Below are positions 1-37,946 of a stretch of DNA of 64,000 bases, piece by piece. Both the position numbers and the translations under genes were made by a program. The stretch lies in the NCBI GenBank assembly GCA_965222155.1, contig CBDCTH010000012.1:480001-544000 (forward strand), written 5' to 3'. Position 1 is the first letter of the stretch, and every line of letters begins with the position of its first letter. This DNA comes from Gammaproteobacteria bacterium. Lineage in GTDB: Bacteria > Pseudomonadota > Gammaproteobacteria > Eutrophobiales > Eutrophobiaceae. The notes under the pieces are model-generated. The model had not been told where the DNA came from. It worked only from the letters and a program-made list of their open reading frames with translations, and made no database searches.

Positions 1-297
1 CTGGAGCTGTTTCAACAGGACCCAGCCACAACCGGCATCATCATGGTGGGCGAGATAGGCGGCAGCGCCGAAGAGGAAGCGGCAGAGTTTATCGGACAGT
101 ATGCCAATAAACCCGTAGTAGGTTATATTGCTGGCGTTACTGCGCCCCCGGGAAGGCGCATGGGACATGCCGGCGCGATTATTTCAGGCGGCAAAGGGAG
201 TGCGAGCGACAAATTCTCCGCGCTTGATGCCGCCGGCGTAACAACCGTCAAGTCACCTGCCGAACTGGGTGAGGCTATTGCCGCAAAATTAAAGTGA
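1..297 (+). CDS. sucD: Succinyl-CoA synthetase alpha subunit, 5'-partial
   Basis: Frame open from base 1; motifs [12 protein letters not shown] and GRRMGHAGA (phospho-His loop). Confidence 0.96.
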
Positions 298-2153
298 ACA
301 GAGTCGCTATTGCCCAGGTTGATTTGTGTGTCGGCGATATAGACGGTAATACGGAACTGGTTCTTGAATACATTTCCAGGGCCAGAGGCAGCGCCGGCGC
401 AGATACGATAATATTCCCCGAGTTGGCCCTGACCGGTTATCCGCCGGAAGACCTGTTATTGCGTCCTCATTTCCACGTACAGGTGGAACAGGCCTTGCAA
501 CGAGTGATGCACGGGTCGCAGGGCATAAGCGTTGTCCTCGGCTATCCGACGCAAAAAGAGACGCGCCTGTATAACTCCTGCAGTCTGGTCAGGGACGGGG
601 AGGTCGTCACAACCTACCATAAAAGAAACTTGCCCAATTACGGTGTTTTCGACGAAAAACGTTATTTTACCGAGGGAGAAGAGCTGAATCTGGTTGAAAC
701 CCCGGACCTCAAGGTTGCGCTGAGTGTATGTGAGGACCTGTGGACCGAAGACCACGTCAGCGAAGCAGCCGGCGCCGGGGCGGAGCTGCTGATCAATATC
801 AACGCCTCTCCCTACCACACAGACAAATCCAGTGTCAGGGAGGTACTGCTGAAGCGCCGCGCCGTTGACCATAATATAGCGATCATCTACGTCAACCTGG
901 TGGGCGGCCAGGATGAACTGATATTCGACGGTGGTTCCCTGGTCATAGATTGCCGTGGTGAATTCGTCTTCAAAGCCCCGCAGTTTGAACAGGGTCTGTA
1001 CCTGGTGGAGCTGGGACGGGCGGCGGCAGGCGCTATTACCGTGGAAGCCAAATCAGTGCAGTGTCCGCCCCTGGACTTTACCGAGAGCGTCTACCGGGCA
1101 CTGGTGCTTGGCGTCAAGGATTACGTGTTGAAAAACGGTTTCAAGGGTGCGGTTATCGGTTTGTCGGGCGGTATCGACTCGGCGCTGACCCTGGCTATCG
1201 CCGTGGATGCGCTCGGTCCGGAAAACGTTGAAGTGCTGCTGCTGCCGTCCCGTTACACTGCCGCCATGAGTGTCGAAGACGCACAGGAAATGGCCGATAA
1301 GCTGGGTGTCTCCTGCCATACGGTGAGTATTGAAAAACCTTTTTCGGCGTTCGCGGAAATTTTGTCACCGGTTTTCAAGGATCTCCCTATGGCCCGGACT
1401 TCTCACCAGGTGATGCGCCCTTGCTTGTCTTTTTTGCGCCAGTGGGCACGTGTTCCCTCAACCATAGCTACGGCTATGCGTTCGTTCGCAGGCGCCCACT
1501 GGCGCAAAAAATCCGGCGCATTCATTGCGCCCATCCCTGGGCGCAACCCTACGGGCGGCTGTCGCCGTGCAAATCGGCTATCCTGCCGATTTGTCATCGC
1601 ATCACTTGGTGAGAAATCCGAGCAGGACACGACCGAAGAAAATATCCAGGCCCGCTGCCGCGGATTGTTGCTTATGGCCGTATCCAACAAAACCGGCAAG
1701 CTGGTTTTGACGACGGGCAATAAAAGTGAAATGGCGGTGGGTTACGCAACCTTGTACGGGGATATGGCCGGTGGGTTTGCGCCGCTCAAAGACGTGCCGA
1801 AAATCCTGGTCTACAAACTGTCCCGCTGGCGCAACCGGACCGGGGAAATCATTCCGCAACGGATCATCGACCGCCCGCCCAGTGCGGAGTTACGTTTTGA
1901 CCAGAAAGACGAAGACTCCCTGCCTGGCTATGACGTGCTGGATCCGATACTGGAAAAATACATTGAGATGGACCACACTCCGGGTGAGATTATCGAAGCA
2001 GGCTATGACCGGGATACTGTCTACCAGGTGATCAGGCTGGTGGATAAAAATGAATACAAGCGCCGCCAGGCCGCTCCCGGCGTCAGGATCACAGAACGCG
2101 CCTTCGGTCGCGACCGGCGTTATCCTATTACTTCCCGCTACCAGGAAATATAA
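294..2153 (+). CDS. nadE: Glutamine-dependent NAD+ synthetase with a 78-aa in-frame insertion
   Basis: Nitrilase-type N-domain ([28 protein letters not shown]), SGGIDS, TGNKSE..VGY.TLYGD; element inserted at 1393-1622. Confidence 0.96.
1393..1622. mobile_element. Palindromic MITE, copy 1, in frame within nadE
   Basis: TIRs CCCGGACTTCTCACCAGGTGATGCG / CGCATCACTTGGTGAGAAATCCGAG; degenerate 4-bp flanks ATGG/CAGG; homologous to 17535-17773, 25311-25644 and 37803-37946. Confidence 0.9.
1521..1595. repeat. 75-nt multi-hairpin element nested in MITE copy 1
   Basis: Near-identical 75-nt copy at 25417-25491, at a different position within the host MITE. Confidence 0.85.
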
Positions 2154-11770: not shown

Positions 11771-12146
11771 GGGAGTCAGCCGGGCAATCGCTGTCGGAAC
11801 GGATTGATTTTTTATCAATTCCGGTTCGGCAGAGGAAAGTCCGGGCTCCACAGGGGCAGGGCGCCAGGTAATTCCTGGGCGGCGCGAGTCGACGGAAAGT
11901 GCAACAGAAAGTATACCGCCCGGCCACTTACCCCAAGTGGCCGGGTAAGGGTGAAATGGTGCGGTAAGAGCGCACCGCGTGGCTGGCAACAGGCACGGCA
12001 TGGTAAACCCCGCCTGGAGCAAGGCCAAATAAGGGGGCGATAATGTGGCCCGCATTGTCCCCGGGTAGGCTGCTGGAGGTGTATGGTGACGTACATCCTA
12101 GATGAATGATTGTCCTGGACAGAACCCGGCTTACAGGCTGACTCCC
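11771..12146 (+). ncRNA. rnpB: RNase P RNA, type A
   Basis: GAGGAAAGTCCGGGCTCC, AGTGCAACAGAAAG, GGTAAACCCC, ACAGAACCCGGCTTA; P1 GGGAGTCAGCC/GGCTGACTCCC; rsmI-rnpB-mraZ synteny. Confidence 0.97.
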
Positions 12147-12202
12147 ACCTTGTTCCCCCGGTTTATTCCTGAATCCACACTCTTTTCTTAATAAAGTTTT
12201 AC

Positions 12203-16040: not shown

Positions 16041-17563
16041 TGATGTTGCCCGTAAACAAGCGTCAAAGCGGTTTTCCATTGCAGATGCTGCTGGAAGGTC
16101 TGACTGATGCACGGGTCGAGGGTGATATTTCAGTTCAGGGGATCAGTTCGGACAGCCGTGAAATTCGCCCGGGTGATTTGTTTCTCGCCTGCCGGGGACC
16201 GAACACCCGCGGCAGCCTGTTCATCAACGCTGCGCTCAAGGCAGGGGCCGCGGCAGTGGTCGTGGATGAGGAATTGCTGTCCGACCTGGACCGGTGCCGG
16301 CCGGCGCTGTTTCCGGTAGCGGATTTACGCGCTAAACTGGGATTGATTGCCGGGCGGTTTTACGGCGATCCCACAAAACAGCTGCACCTCACCGGCGTTA
16401 CGGGAACCAACGGCAAAACCAGCGTAAGCTGGTGGCTGGCGAAACTCCATTCACTGCTGACGCGGACACAGGCGGGTTTGATCGGCACCCTGGGATACGG
16501 GTGTTATCCGCGCCTGCAATCCGGGCTTAATACAACCCCGGGCGCAGTCAGTTTACAGCGCTTGTTTGCCGGCTTCGTCGAAGCGGGCGCGGACACGGCG
16601 TTCATGGAGGTATCATCCCATGCCCTGGATCAGGGGCGCGTCAGCGAAGTCGATTTCGACGTTGCCGTGTTCACCAACCTGAGCCGGGACCATCTGGATT
16701 ACCACCGGAGCCTGGACGAGTACTTCCGCGCCAAACAAAAACTGTTTGCATTCAATTCATTGCGCGCTGCCGTGGTGAACTGTGATGACCCATACGGGCA
16801 GGCAATACTACGCGCTCTGCCGGCGGGCATAGAGGCGATCAGTTACGGTTTATCAGGCAATCCGCAACAGTCGGTTCAGCCTCTCGTCAGGGCAAGGCCG
16901 GCGCCGGGCGCTGAGCTTATCCTGGATATTACCAGTCCCTGGGGCAACGGCCAGGTGCGGCCGGGGGTAACGGGAAAATTCAACGTCGGCAATATACTGG
17001 CGCTGGTTTCGGTGCTGGGGCTGGCAGGGTTCCCGCTTGAGCGCATCCTGGAAAAGCTGGACAACATCGGCCCGGTACCGGGTCGTATGGAGAGTTTCAG
17101 ACGCGCAGACGGCGCCCAAATCGTCGTTGATTACGCCCATACCCCCGCCGCCCTGGAACAGGCCCTGGCAAGTCTGCGGGAATGTTGTGCGGGGCGGTTG
17201 ATCTGTGTTTTCGGCTGTGGCGGCGAACGGGATAAGGAAAAGCGGCCGCAGATGGGAGAACTGGCGGAACAACTTTCCGACGAAGTAATTTTAACTGATG
17301 ACAATCCGAGGTCTGAAGCCGGCGATGACATTATCGAGGCCATCCTCTCCGGCATAACCGCCAAGGGTTGCGCCACTATAGAGCGCAACCGTTCCAGGGC
17401 CATCGAGCTGGCGCTGGGGCGGGCCGGGCCCGCTGACGTGGTATTGATTGCCGGCAAGGGACATGAAACCTGTCAGGAAATTGCAGGTACGCGCTATCCC
17501 TTCAACGATCTGCAGCAGGTCAGGCAGTTGCTAGCCCGGAATTCTCACCAGGTGATGCGATGA
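16037..17563 (+). CDS. murE: UDP-MurNAc-Ala-Glu:mDAP ligase; C-terminus derived from a MITE
   Basis: GVTGTNGKT, MEVSSH, DYAHTP, DNPR, AGKGHE. Confidence 0.96.
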   Translation: MMMLPVNKRQSGFPLQMLLEGLTDARVEGDISVQGISSDSREIRPGDLFLACRGPNTRGSLFINAALKAGAAAVVVDEELLSDLDRCRPALFPVADLRAKLGLIAGRFYGDPTKQLHLTGVTGTNGKTSVSWWLAKLHSLLTRTQAGLIGTLGYGCYPRLQSGLNTTPGAVSLQRLFAGFVEAGADTAFMEVSSHALDQGRVSEVDFDVAVFTNLSRDHLDYHRSLDEYFRAKQKLFAFNSLRAAVVNCDDPYGQAILRALPAGIEAISYGLSGNPQQSVQPLVRARPAPGAELILDITSPWGNGQVRPGVTGKFNVGNILALVSVLGLAGFPLERILEKLDNIGPVPGRMESFRRADGAQIVVDYAHTPAALEQALASLRECCAGRLICVFGCGGERDKEKRPQMGELAEQLSDEVILTDDNPRSEAGDDIIEAILSGITAKGCATIERNRSRAIELALGRAGPADVVLIAGKGHETCQEIAGTRYPFNDLQQVRQLLARNSHQVMR

Positions 17564-17773
17564 TCGCGCCGGATTTTTGCCGCCAGCGGGTGCCTGCGAC
17601 CGAAAGCATAGCCGTAGTTCTGGTTGAGGGAGCACGTGCCCGCTGGCGGCAAAAAGACAAGCGAGGGCGCATCAAGCGTAGTTTATTCAGATGATATTGT
17701 AGACATGTTACCGCAACCTATTGACAGCAAACAAGTATTAGATGGCAACAAGCGGCTTGGTGAGAATTCCGGG
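17535..17773. mobile_element. Palindromic MITE, copy 2, in the 3' end of murE (reverse orientation to copy 1)
   Basis: TIRs CCCGGAATTCTCACCA / TGGTGAGAATTCCGGG; flanks CTAG/CTGG. Confidence 0.9.
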
Positions 17774-17787
17774 CTGGGGTACGCGGG

Positions 17788-23912: not shown

Positions 23913-25335
23913 TGGGCACAACATGGGTCGCGTCAGGCATATCCATTTTGTCGGTATTGGCGGAGCCGGCATGAGCGGGATAGCCGAAGTCCTGCATAAC
24001 CTGGGCTATACGGTGTCAGGCACGGACCTGAAGCAGGGCAACAGCACGGAACGGCTTGCAGACATGGGTGTCGAGGTGCGCTTTGAACACGAAGCGGAAT
24101 GTGTGAACGGCAGCGACGTGGTTGTTTATTCAAGCGCGATCCCGGCAGACAATCCGGAGTTGTCGGCAGCGCGCCGACAACGCATACCGATCATCCCGCG
24201 GGCCGAGATGCTGTCTGAACTGATGCGTTTCAGGGAAGGGGTTGCGGTAGCCGGCACCCACGGCAAGACGACAACAACCAGCCTGATCGCCAGCCTGCTG
24301 GCGGAAGGCATGTTCGACCCGACCTATATCATCGGTGGGCGCTTGAACATGACAGGTTCCCATGCCCGGCTCGGCAAGGGGAAATACATGGTAGCCGAGG
24401 CGGATGAGAGTGATGCCTCCTTCCTGCACCTGCAACCTGTCTATGCCGTGCTGACGAATATCGATGCCGATCACCTGGAGTACTGTGGCGGCAGTTACCA
24501 GGCGTTGCAAAACAACTTTATAGACTTCCTGCACTGCCTGCCGTTTTACGGTCTGGTGGTCATCTGCAGCGATGACGCCGGTATCCGCGGTATCGTCACC
24601 CGCATAAACCGGCCTTATGTCACCTATGGGATTGATTCCGACGCGGATTACCGGGCGGAAGCGATTCAATATGACGGGCCGACAACCCGGTTCAACATAG
24701 TGCGCCGCAACCAGGATGACGCGTTCCGGGTAACGCTGAACCTGCCGGGCCGGCATAACGTCCTGAATGCCCTGGCGGCAGTGGCGCTGGCTATCGAACT
24801 GGGCGTGTCGGAACAGGCAATAAGCGCCGGATTGGCAAACTTCCAGGGCATAGACCGCAGGAGTTCGATCCTGGGTGATATCCATATCGACGGCAAGACC
24901 GTATTGCTTATCGACGATTATGCCCACCACCCCAGTGAAATAGCCGCTATCAATAATGCTCTTGCTGACGGTTGGCCCGGCAGGAAAGTGGTCGTCGTGT
25001 TTCAACCGCACCGGTATACCCGTACCCGGGATCTTTTCGAAGAGTTCTGCCAGATATTGTCGGAACTCGACAGCTTGATTCTGCTTGACGTCTATCCCGC
25101 CGGGGAGCGCCCCATCAAGGGCGCCGACAGCCGTTCCCTGAGCCGGGCGCTCAGGGTCAGGGGCAAGGTGGAGCCTATTCTCGTCAACAATGAAACGGAA
25201 TTGCTGGCCGTGCTGGAAAACCTTACGGCGCAGAACGATATCCTGTTGCTGCTGGGCGCAGGAGATATCAGCGCCCTCGGTAGCCGGTTGCTCGACGTGT
25301 ACGGCACCAGCCCACATTTCTCACCAGATCGCTAG
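23905..25335 (+). CDS. murC: UDP-MurNAc:L-Ala ligase; C-terminus derived from a MITE
   Basis: GIGGAGMSG, GTHGKTTT, EADESD, DDYAHHP, FQPHRYTR. Confidence 0.96.
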   Translation: MPDGHNMGRVRHIHFVGIGGAGMSGIAEVLHNLGYTVSGTDLKQGNSTERLADMGVEVRFEHEAECVNGSDVVVYSSAIPADNPELSAARRQRIPIIPRAEMLSELMRFREGVAVAGTHGKTTTTSLIASLLAEGMFDPTYIIGGRLNMTGSHARLGKGKYMVAEADESDASFLHLQPVYAVLTNIDADHLEYCGGSYQALQNNFIDFLHCLPFYGLVVICSDDAGIRGIVTRINRPYVTYGIDSDADYRAEAIQYDGPTTRFNIVRRNQDDAFRVTLNLPGRHNVLNALAAVALAIELGVSEQAISAGLANFQGIDRRSSILGDIHIDGKTVLLIDDYAHHPSEIAAINNALADGWPGRKVVVVFQPHRYTRTRDLFEEFCQILSELDSLILLDVYPAGERPIKGADSRSLSRALRVRGKVEPILVNNETELLAVLENLTAQNDILLLLGAGDISALGSRLLDVYGTSPHFSPDR

Positions 25336-25644
25336 TTGCCCTCCGATAATTTATTGCTATCAATACATAATGATAATTCACTTACTATATAGACATTACA
25401 GACTGCGCTTGATGCGTTCATTGCATCCATCCCTGGACGCAACCCTACGGGCGGCTATCGCCGTGCAAATCGGCTGTCCTGCCGATTTGTCTCGCTTGTC
25501 TTTTTCCCGCCAACGGGTACGTGCTCCCTCAACCAGAGTCCCAGCTATGCTTTCGGTCCCCGTATCAAGTACGGGGCAGACTCCGGCACCCGTTGGTGGG
25601 AAAAATCCTGCGCGATCATCGCATCACCTGATGAGAAATGCGGG
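25311..25644. mobile_element. Palindromic MITE, copy 3, at the murC/murB junction with two nested inserts
   Basis: TIRs CCCACATTTCTCACCAG / CTGATGAGAAATGCGGG; nested inserts at 25417-25491 and 25558-25582. Confidence 0.88.
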
Positions 25645-25660
25645 CTTCGGGGCGATTGAG

Positions 25661-37802: not shown

Positions 37803-37946
37803 TCCGGATTTCTCAGGTCTAATGTTGCCATCGGATAGATGTCCGCTGTTACTGAGTTATGGTCATCTGCTCACCATGTCACCATTACAGACTTCACTTG
37901 ATGCGCCCTCGCTGGTCTTTTCGCCGCCAACGGGCACATGCTCCCT
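37803..37946. mobile_element. Palindromic MITE, copy 4, truncated at the island boundary
   Basis: TCCGGATTTCTCA end, 67-nt region, CTTGATGCGCCCTCGC...GGGCACATGCTCCCT, then similarity ends abruptly. Confidence 0.75.

Follow-up and report, generated by a model that had tools for sequence, protein, structure and literature searches.

An in-frame MITE insertion in the single-copy NAD+ synthetase gene of an uncultured gammaproteobacterium

In the genome of an uncultured gammaproteobacterium, nadE, the sole NAD synthetase gene, has gained 78 codons in frame through the insertion of a MITE. We consider it likely that this insert is a translated loop, tolerated within a working NadE. The gene lies near the beginning of the stretch of DNA that we analyzed (64,000 nucleotides of contig CBDCTH010000012.1, assembly GCA_965222155.1; hereinafter, the window). 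A sequence-only reading of the window had already proposed that 78 residues were added to the essential enzyme NadE, without a stop codon and in frame, and this core claim is borne out.

The inserted segment in nadE

The nadE open reading frame (294..2153, + strand) encodes, with the insert included, 619 aa and retains both domains of a glutamine-dependent NAD+ synthetase, namely, an N-terminal CN_hydrolase domain (PF00795, residues 3-246, E 1.5e-33) and a C-terminal NAD_synthase domain (PF02540, E 1.6e-70), the match to the latter being split at profile position 93. The nearest solved structures are 4f4h (E 1.4e-157) and 5kha, and the Foldseek TM score of the NadE model is 0.78-0.79 (target-normalised). 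Residues E43, K110 and C146, which we take to be the catalytic triad, as well as S291-G292-G293, D295 and S296, presumably the PP-loop, occupy invariant columns across 72 sequences, the window NadE among them. When the insert is left out, the protein has 541 aa, the usual length for this enzyme, as the sequence-only reading had stated and as the alignment confirms. That reading had also raised the prospect of a second intact nadE; no second NAD synthetase was found in the genome, where the partial PF02540 matches represent PP-loop paralogues only. The source genome is rated 100% complete, with 7.28% contamination in the assembly and some duplicated contig ends.

Comparison with relatives delimits the insertion. 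In an alignment of 18 related nadE loci (16 from the same genus and 2 from the same class), every locus carries a single variable codon, for Val, Ile, Glu, Ala or Pro, at the site where the window has a segment of 237 nt (1389..1625, + strand), so that the site has grown by a net 234 nt (78 codons) and contains no stop. The empty loci include that of the closest species, G032 (95-97% nucleotide identity), in which 3 nt stand in place of the 237. Furthermore, none of 22 further species in the genus gave a match to a query spanning the insert, and a search for related loci with the insert-spanning protein showed the insert in none of the best 80 loci. The expectation that relatives lack the insert is supported by these loci. 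An unrelated NadE, from Solirubrobacterales, has a natural extension of 17 residues at the corresponding loop.

Within this segment, the MITE proper spans 232 bp (1392..1623, + strand) and consists of a 160-bp short form and a nested 72-nt module. Its terminal inverted repeats (1392..1417 and 1598..1623, both given on the + strand) are 26 nt long and 88% complementary, and the left one departs from the family terminus consensus by 1 mismatch in 16. The flanking dinucleotides, TG on the left (1390..1391, +) and AG on the right (1624..1625, +), are degenerate counterparts of the TA that borders the family. These boundaries replace the 230-bp element with a 4-bp duplication (ATGG/CAGG) that had been read from the sequence earlier. 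The core of the element is a long hairpin (1430..1511, +) with arms at 1430-1452 and 1489-1511 that are 91% complementary. The nested module D (1521..1595, +), which contains hairpins, comprises 75 nt in place of 3 nt and accordingly adds a net 72 nt, or 24 codons, that are missing from the +54 alleles described below. Module D is present in 34 near-full copies in the genome, with the same ends in four different contexts, and is open in all three forward frames, so that its stop-free state says little; for the nadE copy of the element as a whole, one of the six frames is free of stops. On the minus strand of module D, GGA is present in two hairpin loops.

The presence of ~130 family places in the genome, along with the contamination and the duplicated contig ends mentioned above, is what might be expected if a repeat copy had been misplaced into nadE during assembly. 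However, separately assembled (Logan) contigs from two studies run across both junctions without a single difference, and NadE with the insert is encoded by thirteen other assemblies, such that an artefact of this kind is scarcely credible. Specifically, contigs from run X3 cover 1000-1440 and 1576-2000, and those from run X4, which belongs to another study, cover 1279-1440 and 1571-1696; being de Bruijn contigs, they break inside the repeat and leave part of the insert uncovered. The sequence-only reading had singled out unspanned junctions as a sign of misassembly, and here both are spanned.

The element family and related systems

The 234-nt query yielded 262 matches at 132 places in the genome, and with this many copies and just one stop-free frame in six, the in-frame element is not a product of chance. 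The family occurs in forms of 160, 232 and 241 bp, none with a transposase, and its termini were detected at 97 sites with no more than 3 mismatches. Among the 77 clean left-right pairs genome-wide, 50 have TA at both flanks, and 72 at one flank or both. Three further copies lie in the window: a standard 241-bp copy with the AT-rich segment, located between genes (17534..17774, - strand), a composite copy of 336 bp directly upstream of murB (25310..25645, +), and a fragment of 48 nt (37899..37946, +). The AT-rich segment, previously put at 67 nt, measures 81 nt when the 241-bp and 160-bp forms are compared. The assertion that the nadE copy alone lacks this segment holds within the window and fails genome-wide, where four other 160-bp copies lack it as well.

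The genome also contains an IS of 1,770 bp, in two copies and one broken copy, the termini of which are close to the MITE ends across the first 14-16 nt and divergent further in. The copies of this IS are likewise flanked by TA and encode a PF13701 DDE transposase (E 3e-119). Judging from the shared termini, the IS is the likely parent of the MITE family, and we infer that the MITE is mobilised by the PF13701 transposase. Inverted repeats, TA flanks and an IS with matching ends make this a classic MITE family, in agreement with the initial classification of the element; this modular family, in which 72-nt modules are nested and of which an IS is the likely parent, was previously undescribed. 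Among species representatives searched for exact 23-mer matches, only ten genomes carry the family, all from uncultured Gammaproteobacteria. In Rfam, neither RF02770 nor any other family matches any of the four element copies in window 1-40000 at E up to 1. The sole Rfam match in that part of the window, at the same threshold, is RNase P RNA.

We considered whether the family is built to be neutral with respect to the reading frame and rejected this idea: 17 of the 47 distinct lengths of clean pairs are divisible by three (p 0.39). The basic forms (160+2 and 241+2) and the modules (81, 72 and 72) are all multiples of three, and the excess of such lengths among copies (38/77) stems from the 241-bp class. 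In-frame cases are rare, with two conserved genes and one transposase family among the ~130 places. The second conserved gene, a case of the kind that a genome-wide scan had been proposed to look for, encodes an MFS transporter. Its central loop is lengthened by 54 residues (162 nt), the element having the frame and orientation that it has in nadE. This insert is missing from 12 orthologues in the genus, one of which is 96-97% identical, so that for both nadE and the transporter, the evidence of movement consists in presence and absence at orthologous sites.

The sequence-only reading had likened the element to Rickettsia palindromic elements (RPEs), a comparison that stands for behaviour and falls for membership. 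As with RPEs, short palindromic repeats are found in frame in unrelated housekeeping genes, adding a peptide without known function while the gene is kept, and the MFS transporter provides the second such case. The host, however, is an uncultured gammaproteobacterium and not Rickettsia, and the terminal inverted repeats, TA flanks and matching IS set the nadE family apart. Moreover, nearly half of the RPEs lie in ORFs, according to a review (PMC10969869, referring to Ogata et al. 2000), compared to the few in-frame cases among our ~130 places. Likened by behaviour rather than by comparison with RPE sequences, the nadE element is best regarded as an RPE analogue and not as an RPE.

In-frame fusions of MITEs are themselves on record: QMITE1 of Coxiella burnetii, intragenic ERIC elements and MITEs of Anabaena PCC 7120 all provide examples, and the same review calls such fusions 'not unusual' (PMC10969869; see also PMC5896051). 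These elements share with ours the fusion of open-frame copies to host ORFs; ours belongs to a separate sequence family, and the nadE site differs from them in its five natural length alleles, its nested modules and its location in an essential gene. The Correia elements of Neisseria are TA-duplicating MITEs of ~100-250 bp, with inverted ends of ~26 nt and TA on both flanks. In these general traits of size, inverted ends and TA flanks, they resemble the nadE family, the likely parent of which, in contrast, encodes a PF13701 DDE transposase. The YPAL/RU-2 repeats of Yersinia are similar as dispersed palindromic repeats with several inner hairpins, but differ in that RF02770, as noted above, has no match in window 1-40000.

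Length alleles at the nadE site

Outside the site, NadE proteins encoded in other assemblies are 95-96% identical; they form a series of alleles with 0, +12, +54 and +78 residues, the last being that of the window genome, and a second +78 allele with a different nested module of 24 residues; all five are in frame, without a stop or a frameshift. The empty alleles have 541 aa, and one allele of 553 aa (+12), P0004, retains only the two ends of the element. The 11 alleles with +54 comprise eight proteins of 595 aa (the P0003 cluster), two that measure 585 aa owing to a shorter start call, and P0132. The second +78 allele, P0121, corresponds to the +54 form with a different module, which occurs as a repeat at no fewer than 15 places in the window genome. 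The junctions of P0003, P0004, P0121 and P0132 are known from the protein alone. Altogether, at least 13 distinct insert-bearing proteins, from different assemblies, are open over ~540 flanking codons. A search of metagenome and genome contigs with a degenerate pattern of the left junction returned, among the matches listed, chance hits in unrelated taxa, with 0 of 237 loci resembling window 1200-1800.

The insert alleles fall into two separate clades among the empty ones, which implies that the history of the site was not a simple single gain. Between P0001 and P0003, the insert is 81% identical (44/54), compared to 95.9% for the flanks, as expected of a loosely constrained loop. Given that shorter, longer and empty versions exist in related strains, the enzyme evidently tolerates the extra loop, to the extent that sequences can tell. 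Because three of the four length changes involve modules of fixed length (162, 72 and 72 nt), multiples of three are built in, and selection is independently indicated only by the 126-nt deletion and by the lack of stop codons.

Several features of this series would fit an element that exits and re-enters the DNA, with excision or recombination supplying the 541-aa allele and the insert-bearing copy being transient or switchable. The empty allele P0013, which has Val at the site, and the +54 allele P0003 have identical protein flanks, P0006, also empty, has a branch length of 0, and the two insert clades are separated by ~0.13 changes per column, yet just 3 of 54 insert residues distinguish them (P0132 vs P0003). 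In addition, empty alleles with Met (P0006, P0008 and P0010) occur, among the 39 alleles listed, only in the two insert clades. Run X5 contains both the +54 form, seen here in DNA and at a depth of ~75-80, and an empty form, at ~31: one contig crosses the left junction, another goes from 1526 directly to 1599 and so omits precisely the 72 nt that module D adds, and in the empty contig just 3 letters separate 1387 from 1625. However, the empty contig shows 19 differences from the window over 272 flanking bases, and five flank variants of the +54 contig are missing from it, so that it comes from another strain rather than from a subpopulation. Furthermore, no X3 or X4 contig joins across the insert, although contigs drop rare variants, and in the window copy, the inverted ends and the two flanks depart from the family consensus, which ought to make it harder for a transposase to excise the element. 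We accordingly regard such traffic of the element as quite unlikely.

A different route to the 541-aa protein, offered in the sequence-only reading as the second alternative to a new peptide loop, is removal of the insert from the RNA through its terminal stem. The predicted RNA fold of the insert is closed by this stem (-136 kcal/mol, z -12.1), and a metatranscriptome contig from run X20 (283 nt, depth 2.7) covers nadE 1136-1390 and resumes directly at 1625, with 234 nt left out, and has five flank variants (1272, 1273, 1325, 1327 and 1331) in common with the insert-bearing X5 contig. However, over 255 flanking bases this contig shows 17 differences from the window, and its join reads like the Met-bearing empty alleles P0006, P0008 and P0010. 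Of these, P0006 is part of a contig 254,699 nt long, presumably DNA; the existence of P0013, empty and with the protein flanks of a +54 allele, points in the same direction, and run X20 may itself contain DNA. Moreover, were the insert cut out, the five alleles would have no reason to stay in frame and free of stops, and RNA removal is for this reason unsupported. We know of no cut-and-rejoin mechanism for such hairpins in bacteria; cutting of the hairpin by RNase III would not rejoin the ends. Removal from the RNA thus appears very improbable. We also dropped X20 as proof of expression or of RNA excision, since it offers contigs only, at low depth and from a diverged relative. According to the fold prediction, the very stable structure of the insert in the mRNA could hinder expression.

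State of the enzyme and implications

With the insert left out, comparison of nadE with that of G032 gives a dN/dS of 0.19 for the gene and of 0.117 for the synthetase domain (dS 0.13), a pairwise value that averages over two lineages, such that a recent loss of function could go undetected. These ratios indicate purifying selection on nadE outside the insert. In the AlphaFold2 model, most 10-residue blocks of both domain cores have pLDDT >90, whereas residues 364-446 have pLDDT <50 and are bordered by helices at 349-361 (blocks at 74 and 56) and 448-467 (blocks at 76-84). The model thus places the insert between two confident helices and assigns it no structure with confidence. The evidence fits the first of the two alternatives put forward, namely, that the synthetase domain has gained a new peptide loop.

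The C-terminal junction is one residue ahead of the position aligned to residue 128 of Bacillus subtilis NadE, which we take to be the start of the NaAD-binding helix at the dimer interface, and a loop of 78 residues adjoining this helix could therefore impair catalysis. In the part of PMC6946656 at hand, no NadE loop at the insert site is described. It is conceivable, then, that nadE is a young pseudogene or encodes a crippled enzyme, with NAD or amidated precursors coming from another route, a host or the community. Apart from the insert ending one residue short of a conserved substrate-helix motif and receiving no structure from AlphaFold, the uncultured lineage is represented by metagenome-assembled genomes only, and dependence on a partner can be imagined. 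However, at least 13 distinct insert-bearing proteins keep the frame open across the flanking codons, dN/dS in the synthetase domain is 0.12, and all later length changes are in frame. Besides, the insert itself has diverged, to 81% identity between alleles, and so is no recent arrival, and still the gene has remained intact. Inactivation is, accordingly, distinctly improbable.

Taken together, these observations are compatible with a model for the translated, tolerated loop that we favor. Under this model, the MITE would have landed in a variable codon of the linker that joins two helices of the synthetase domain, in the sole stop-free choice among six phases and orientations, and its 160-bp short form with a 2-bp duplication would have contributed 162 nt, or 54 codons. 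Later nesting of the 72-nt hairpin module D in the lineage of the window genome would have brought the addition to 78 codons; we infer this order of events, as well as translation of the loop and retained activity. The insert would be present in the mRNA and in the protein alike, as a tolerated loop at the enzyme surface, basic and probably disordered; nadE would remain the working NAD synthetase of the cell, and selection on this essential single-copy gene would have kept each later length change in frame.

A bolder reading, which we consider unlikely, pertains to one species complex and holds that the linker codon is a reusable landing site, where the element and 24-residue sub-modules (D and that of P0121) are gained, trimmed and perhaps precisely lost. 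If so, loop length would vary between strains (0, 12, 54 and 78 residues, with two kinds of 78), the Met-bearing empty alleles in the two insert clades would be footprints of excision, and the loop beside the substrate helix might tune the activity or regulation of NadE. The site would then represent a natural, modular and reversible insertion of peptide cassettes in an essential enzyme.

In-frame MITEs in housekeeping genes are already known, RPEs foremost, and their effects on proteins have mostly been argued from single genomes. The nadE site provides five natural length variants in proteins that are otherwise nearly identical, the enzyme being an essential one of well-known structure. Such variants are ready-made constructs for asking how much foreign sequence a linker adjacent to an active site accepts, and they could tell whether such loops are neutral, costly or useful.

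An in-frame insertion in the single nadE gene

The nadE open reading frame (294-2153, plus strand) encodes a protein of 619 amino acids, in which the CN-hydrolase domain spans residues 3-246 and the Pfam match to the NAD_synthase domain is broken at profile position 93. Alignments to the nearest solved structures, 4f4h and 5kha, both glutamine-dependent NAD+ synthetases, are interrupted between query residues 362/365 and 442/444. In all 18 related nadE loci that we read (16 from the same genus and 2 from the same class), the site is occupied by one variable codon (Val, Ile, Glu, Ala or Pro), flanked by a conserved ...DLP and a conserved stretch of ten residues; the window has 237 nt in its place (1389-1625, plus strand). 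This codon is the most variable position of its neighbourhood among the relatives. This adds a net 234 nt, or 78 stop-free codons, and without them the protein has 541 amino acids, the common length, in accord with what the sequence-only reading had proposed. The ortholog alignment suggested there gave the same picture: in the closest species, G032, the site is empty, with 3 nt (GTG) instead of 237 and DNA identity of 95% and 97% on the two sides. A 145-residue query spanning the insert had no match at E 1e-20 in any of the 22 other species of the genus.

Logan contigs of sequencing run X3 cover positions 1000-1440 and 1576-2000, and those of X4, which belongs to a different study, span 1279-1440 and 1571-1696, in each case with zero differences from the window; each junction thus has confirmation from two studies, although one of these runs may itself come from the source sample of the window. 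That the insert is an assembly artefact, a concern raised at the outset, is thus hardly credible. In the genome (rated 100% complete), a search for a second intact nadE gave no other full-length match to the protein; PF02540 was otherwise hit only in part, in PP-loop proteins of 365 and 530 amino acids. Elsewhere in the assembly, repeat termini on contigs C7 and C10 have identical 28-nt flanks (e.g. C7:23568 with C10:47339 and C7:29708 with C10:53397), and therefore parts of these contigs duplicate each other, which agrees with the 7.28% contamination figure of the assembly.

The element family and its nested modules

The inverted arms of the nadE element (1392-1417 and 1598-1623) are 26 nt each and 88% complementary. 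Because TA stands before nearly every terminus in the genome, we delimit the element as 232 bp (1392-1623, plus strand) with a 2-bp flank, which is degenerate in this copy (TG on the left, AG on the right). The initial description of a MITE with inverted ends is accordingly retained, whereas its 230 bp and 4-bp duplication are replaced by these boundaries. A 234-nt query produced 262 matches at 132 places in the 4.55-Mb genome, with TA on both sides in 50 of the 77 clean left-right pairs and on at least one side in 72. The commonest form is 241 bp long (17-18 copies); a 241-bp copy at 17534-17774 (minus strand) includes an 81-nt AT-rich segment that is missing from a 160-bp short form (5 copies, one in a gene). 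The nadE copy is this short form plus a 72-nt nested module. The AT-rich segment, conserved among copies, looks promoter-like, with a TATAT-type motif followed by a conserved ACAGACTGCGC, and several family copies stop a few bases ahead of a ribosome-binding site and start codon.

Two full copies of a 1,770-bp IS (C12:1242096-1243865 and C4:218570-220339) and a broken one closely resemble the MITE ends in the first 14-16 nt of their termini. These copies, too, have TA flanks, and they code for a DDE transposase (PF13701, E 3e-119). Judging from these sequence similarities, this IS is likely to be the parent or mobiliser of the family. An exact 23-mer of the core was found at 69 places in ten genomes among species representatives, all uncultured Gammaproteobacteria, and no Rfam family matched the MITE copies in positions 1-40000 of the window at E up to 1; the window has a bacterial class A RNase P RNA at 11772-12149 (337 bits). 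Frame neutrality as a property of the whole family was considered and rejected: counted with the 2-bp flank, only 17 of the 47 distinct lengths are divisible by three.

The 135 repeat places obtained with a tighter joining distance were screened for spanning open frames of 150 amino acids or more. The genome-wide scan, another early suggestion, did reveal further in-frame insertions, namely in an MFS transporter and, for the nested module, in IS5-like transposases. The transporter (482 amino acids, PF07690; C12:629058-630503, minus strand, L029:882-2327) is the one clear further case for the MITE: its central loop contains the 160-bp short form (C12:629651-629810), which with 2 further nt adds 162 nt (54 codons) and is read in the frame and orientation seen in nadE. 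Twelve genus orthologues, that of G032 at 96-97% identity among them, are without it. The remaining long open frames come from copies just upstream of the real starts of trpB, murB, rplC, atpC, folK and genes for a histidine kinase and a TPR protein. Directly upstream of murB is a composite 336-bp copy (25310-25645) whose open frame continues into the gene, but the real murB start probably lies further downstream. Six copies lie within about 13 kb with ribosomal-protein and secY genes (C12:2345288-2358113; L006, L016 and L008), some of them directly upstream of start codons (rplC, with secY nearby), and presumably sit within long operon transcripts.

The nested module, module D (1521-1595, plus strand), has 34 near-full genome copies with fixed ends, in each of which 75 nt replace 3 nt and so add 72 nt. 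It occurs alone, at three different positions within MITE copies and inside a transposase gene; it folds as a row of hairpins, and all three of its forward frames are open. On the minus strand it forms four hairpins, two with GGA in the loop (AGGAUA, GGGA), which resemble CsrA/RsmA binding hairpins; nadE carries the opposite orientation. An IS5-like DDE transposase bears module D in frame in three full copies (C12:36030-36914, that is L458:231-1115; C12:2186212-2187096; C12:3368512-3369342) and eleven paralogous copies are without those 24-33 residues; an IS copy bearing the module seems to have multiplied. A third module, of 24 residues, is present in the NadE protein P0121 (residues about 404-427) and is repeated at at least 15 places in the present genome, within composite MITE copies (e.g. 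C12:2225668-2225742).

Alleles of the nadE site and their history

A protein-collection search with residues 340-470, followed by alignment of the listed members of the P0003 cluster, retrieved alleles that are 95-96% identical to the window protein outside the site, except for P0132, with about 88% over the whole alignment. Empty alleles (541 amino acids; P0006, P0013, P0036 and others) have a single Met, Val or Glu codon, and a +12 allele (P0004, 553 amino acids) keeps just three residues from the start of the element's reading and nine from its end. The +54 allele, the short-form MITE without module D, is represented by eight distinct 595-residue sequences of the P0003 cluster, two 585-residue sequences with a shorter called start and, in a more distant background, P0132 (595 residues). 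There are two kinds of +78 allele, both of 619 residues: that of this genome adds module D to the +54 form, and P0121 adds its different module at another position. Fragments P0002, P0128, P0130 and P0133 bear parts of the insert, and no allele contains a stop or frameshift at the site. Three of the four length changes involve fixed-length modules, so multiples of three are built in. Contigs of run X5 contain the +54 form in DNA, one crossing the left junction and another joining 1526 to 1599, which skips exactly 72 nt, as well as the empty form, in which 1387 is joined to 1625 with CGT between them, reading Pro-Val-Asp.

A tree of 36 NadE proteins, computed with the site columns left out, places the insert alleles in two well-supported clades. 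In clade I (support 99/96), the allele of this genome is sister to a group made up of P0121, nine +54, one +12 and nine empty alleles; in clade II (100/97), P0132 is grouped with eight empty alleles. Outside the site, the +54 allele P0003 does not differ from P0013, an empty allele with Val, and P0132 differs from P0003 at 3 of the 54 insert residues, their flanks being about 0.13 changes per column apart. Met precedes the insert in all insert alleles, and Met-type empty alleles are confined to the two clades among the 39 matches listed. At the protein level, this distribution could stem either from a single old insertion that homologous recombination spread and that was lost repeatedly, or from repeated hot-spot insertion, and it would leave room for precise excision; excision or switching of the element at the DNA level appears unlikely.

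Removal of the insert from the RNA, the second option of the sequence-only reading, could be invoked for a contig of the metatranscriptome X20 (depth 2.7) that skips the 234 nt. However, 17 of the 255 flanking bases in this contig are not those of the window, and across the join it reads like the Met-type empty alleles, which are known from assembled contigs (P0006 on one of 254,699 nt) that are presumably DNA; it is therefore most simply the transcript of an empty allele. Moreover, splicing would leave no need for all five alleles to stay open and in frame, and we regard RNA removal as very improbable.

A probably translated and tolerated loop

With the insert removed, comparison of nadE with G032 yields dN/dS of 0.19 overall and 0.117 in the synthetase domain (dS 0.13), and loss of NadE function through the insert is, in our assessment, quite unlikely. 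The inserts of P0001 and P0003 share 44 of 54 residues, and the flanks are 95.9% identical, as expected of a weakly constrained segment within a constrained protein. Only one of the six frames of the nadE copy is open, as expected if selection admitted only that phase and orientation. In an AlphaFold2 model (72-sequence alignment, mean pLDDT 76, pTM 0.80), residues 364-446 have pLDDT below 50 and are bordered by helices 349-361 (10-residue blocks at 74 and 56) and 448-467 (blocks at 76-84), and most blocks of both domain cores exceed 90. In a Solirubrobacterales NadE (L058:2501-3037), the loop that holds the insert is naturally longer by about 17 residues, so its length varies across bacteria. 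Two features call for caution. At its C-terminal end, the insert joins NadE one residue ahead of the position that aligns with residue 128 of Bacillus subtilis NadE, where the NaAD-contacting helix starts, and the insert RNA is predicted to be very stable (-136 kcal/mol, z -12.1). On balance, the insert is quite probably a translated, tolerated loop of NadE; of the two original options, the loop in the synthetase domain is thus favoured and RNA removal is not.

In one review, in-frame fusions by intragenic MITEs are called 'not unusual', and Rickettsia palindromic elements (RPEs), intragenic ERIC, QMITE1 of Coxiella and Anabaena MITEs are named as examples (PMC10969869). The proposed parallel with RPEs holds for behaviour, in that the nadE element would work like an RPE, but the element itself has the TIRs and TA flanks of a classic MITE, comes with an IS partner and resides in a gammaproteobacterium. 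The nadE case is a further member of a kind of fusion already known; it contributes a set of naturally occurring loop lengths at a single position in an essential enzyme, together with nested 72-nt modules.
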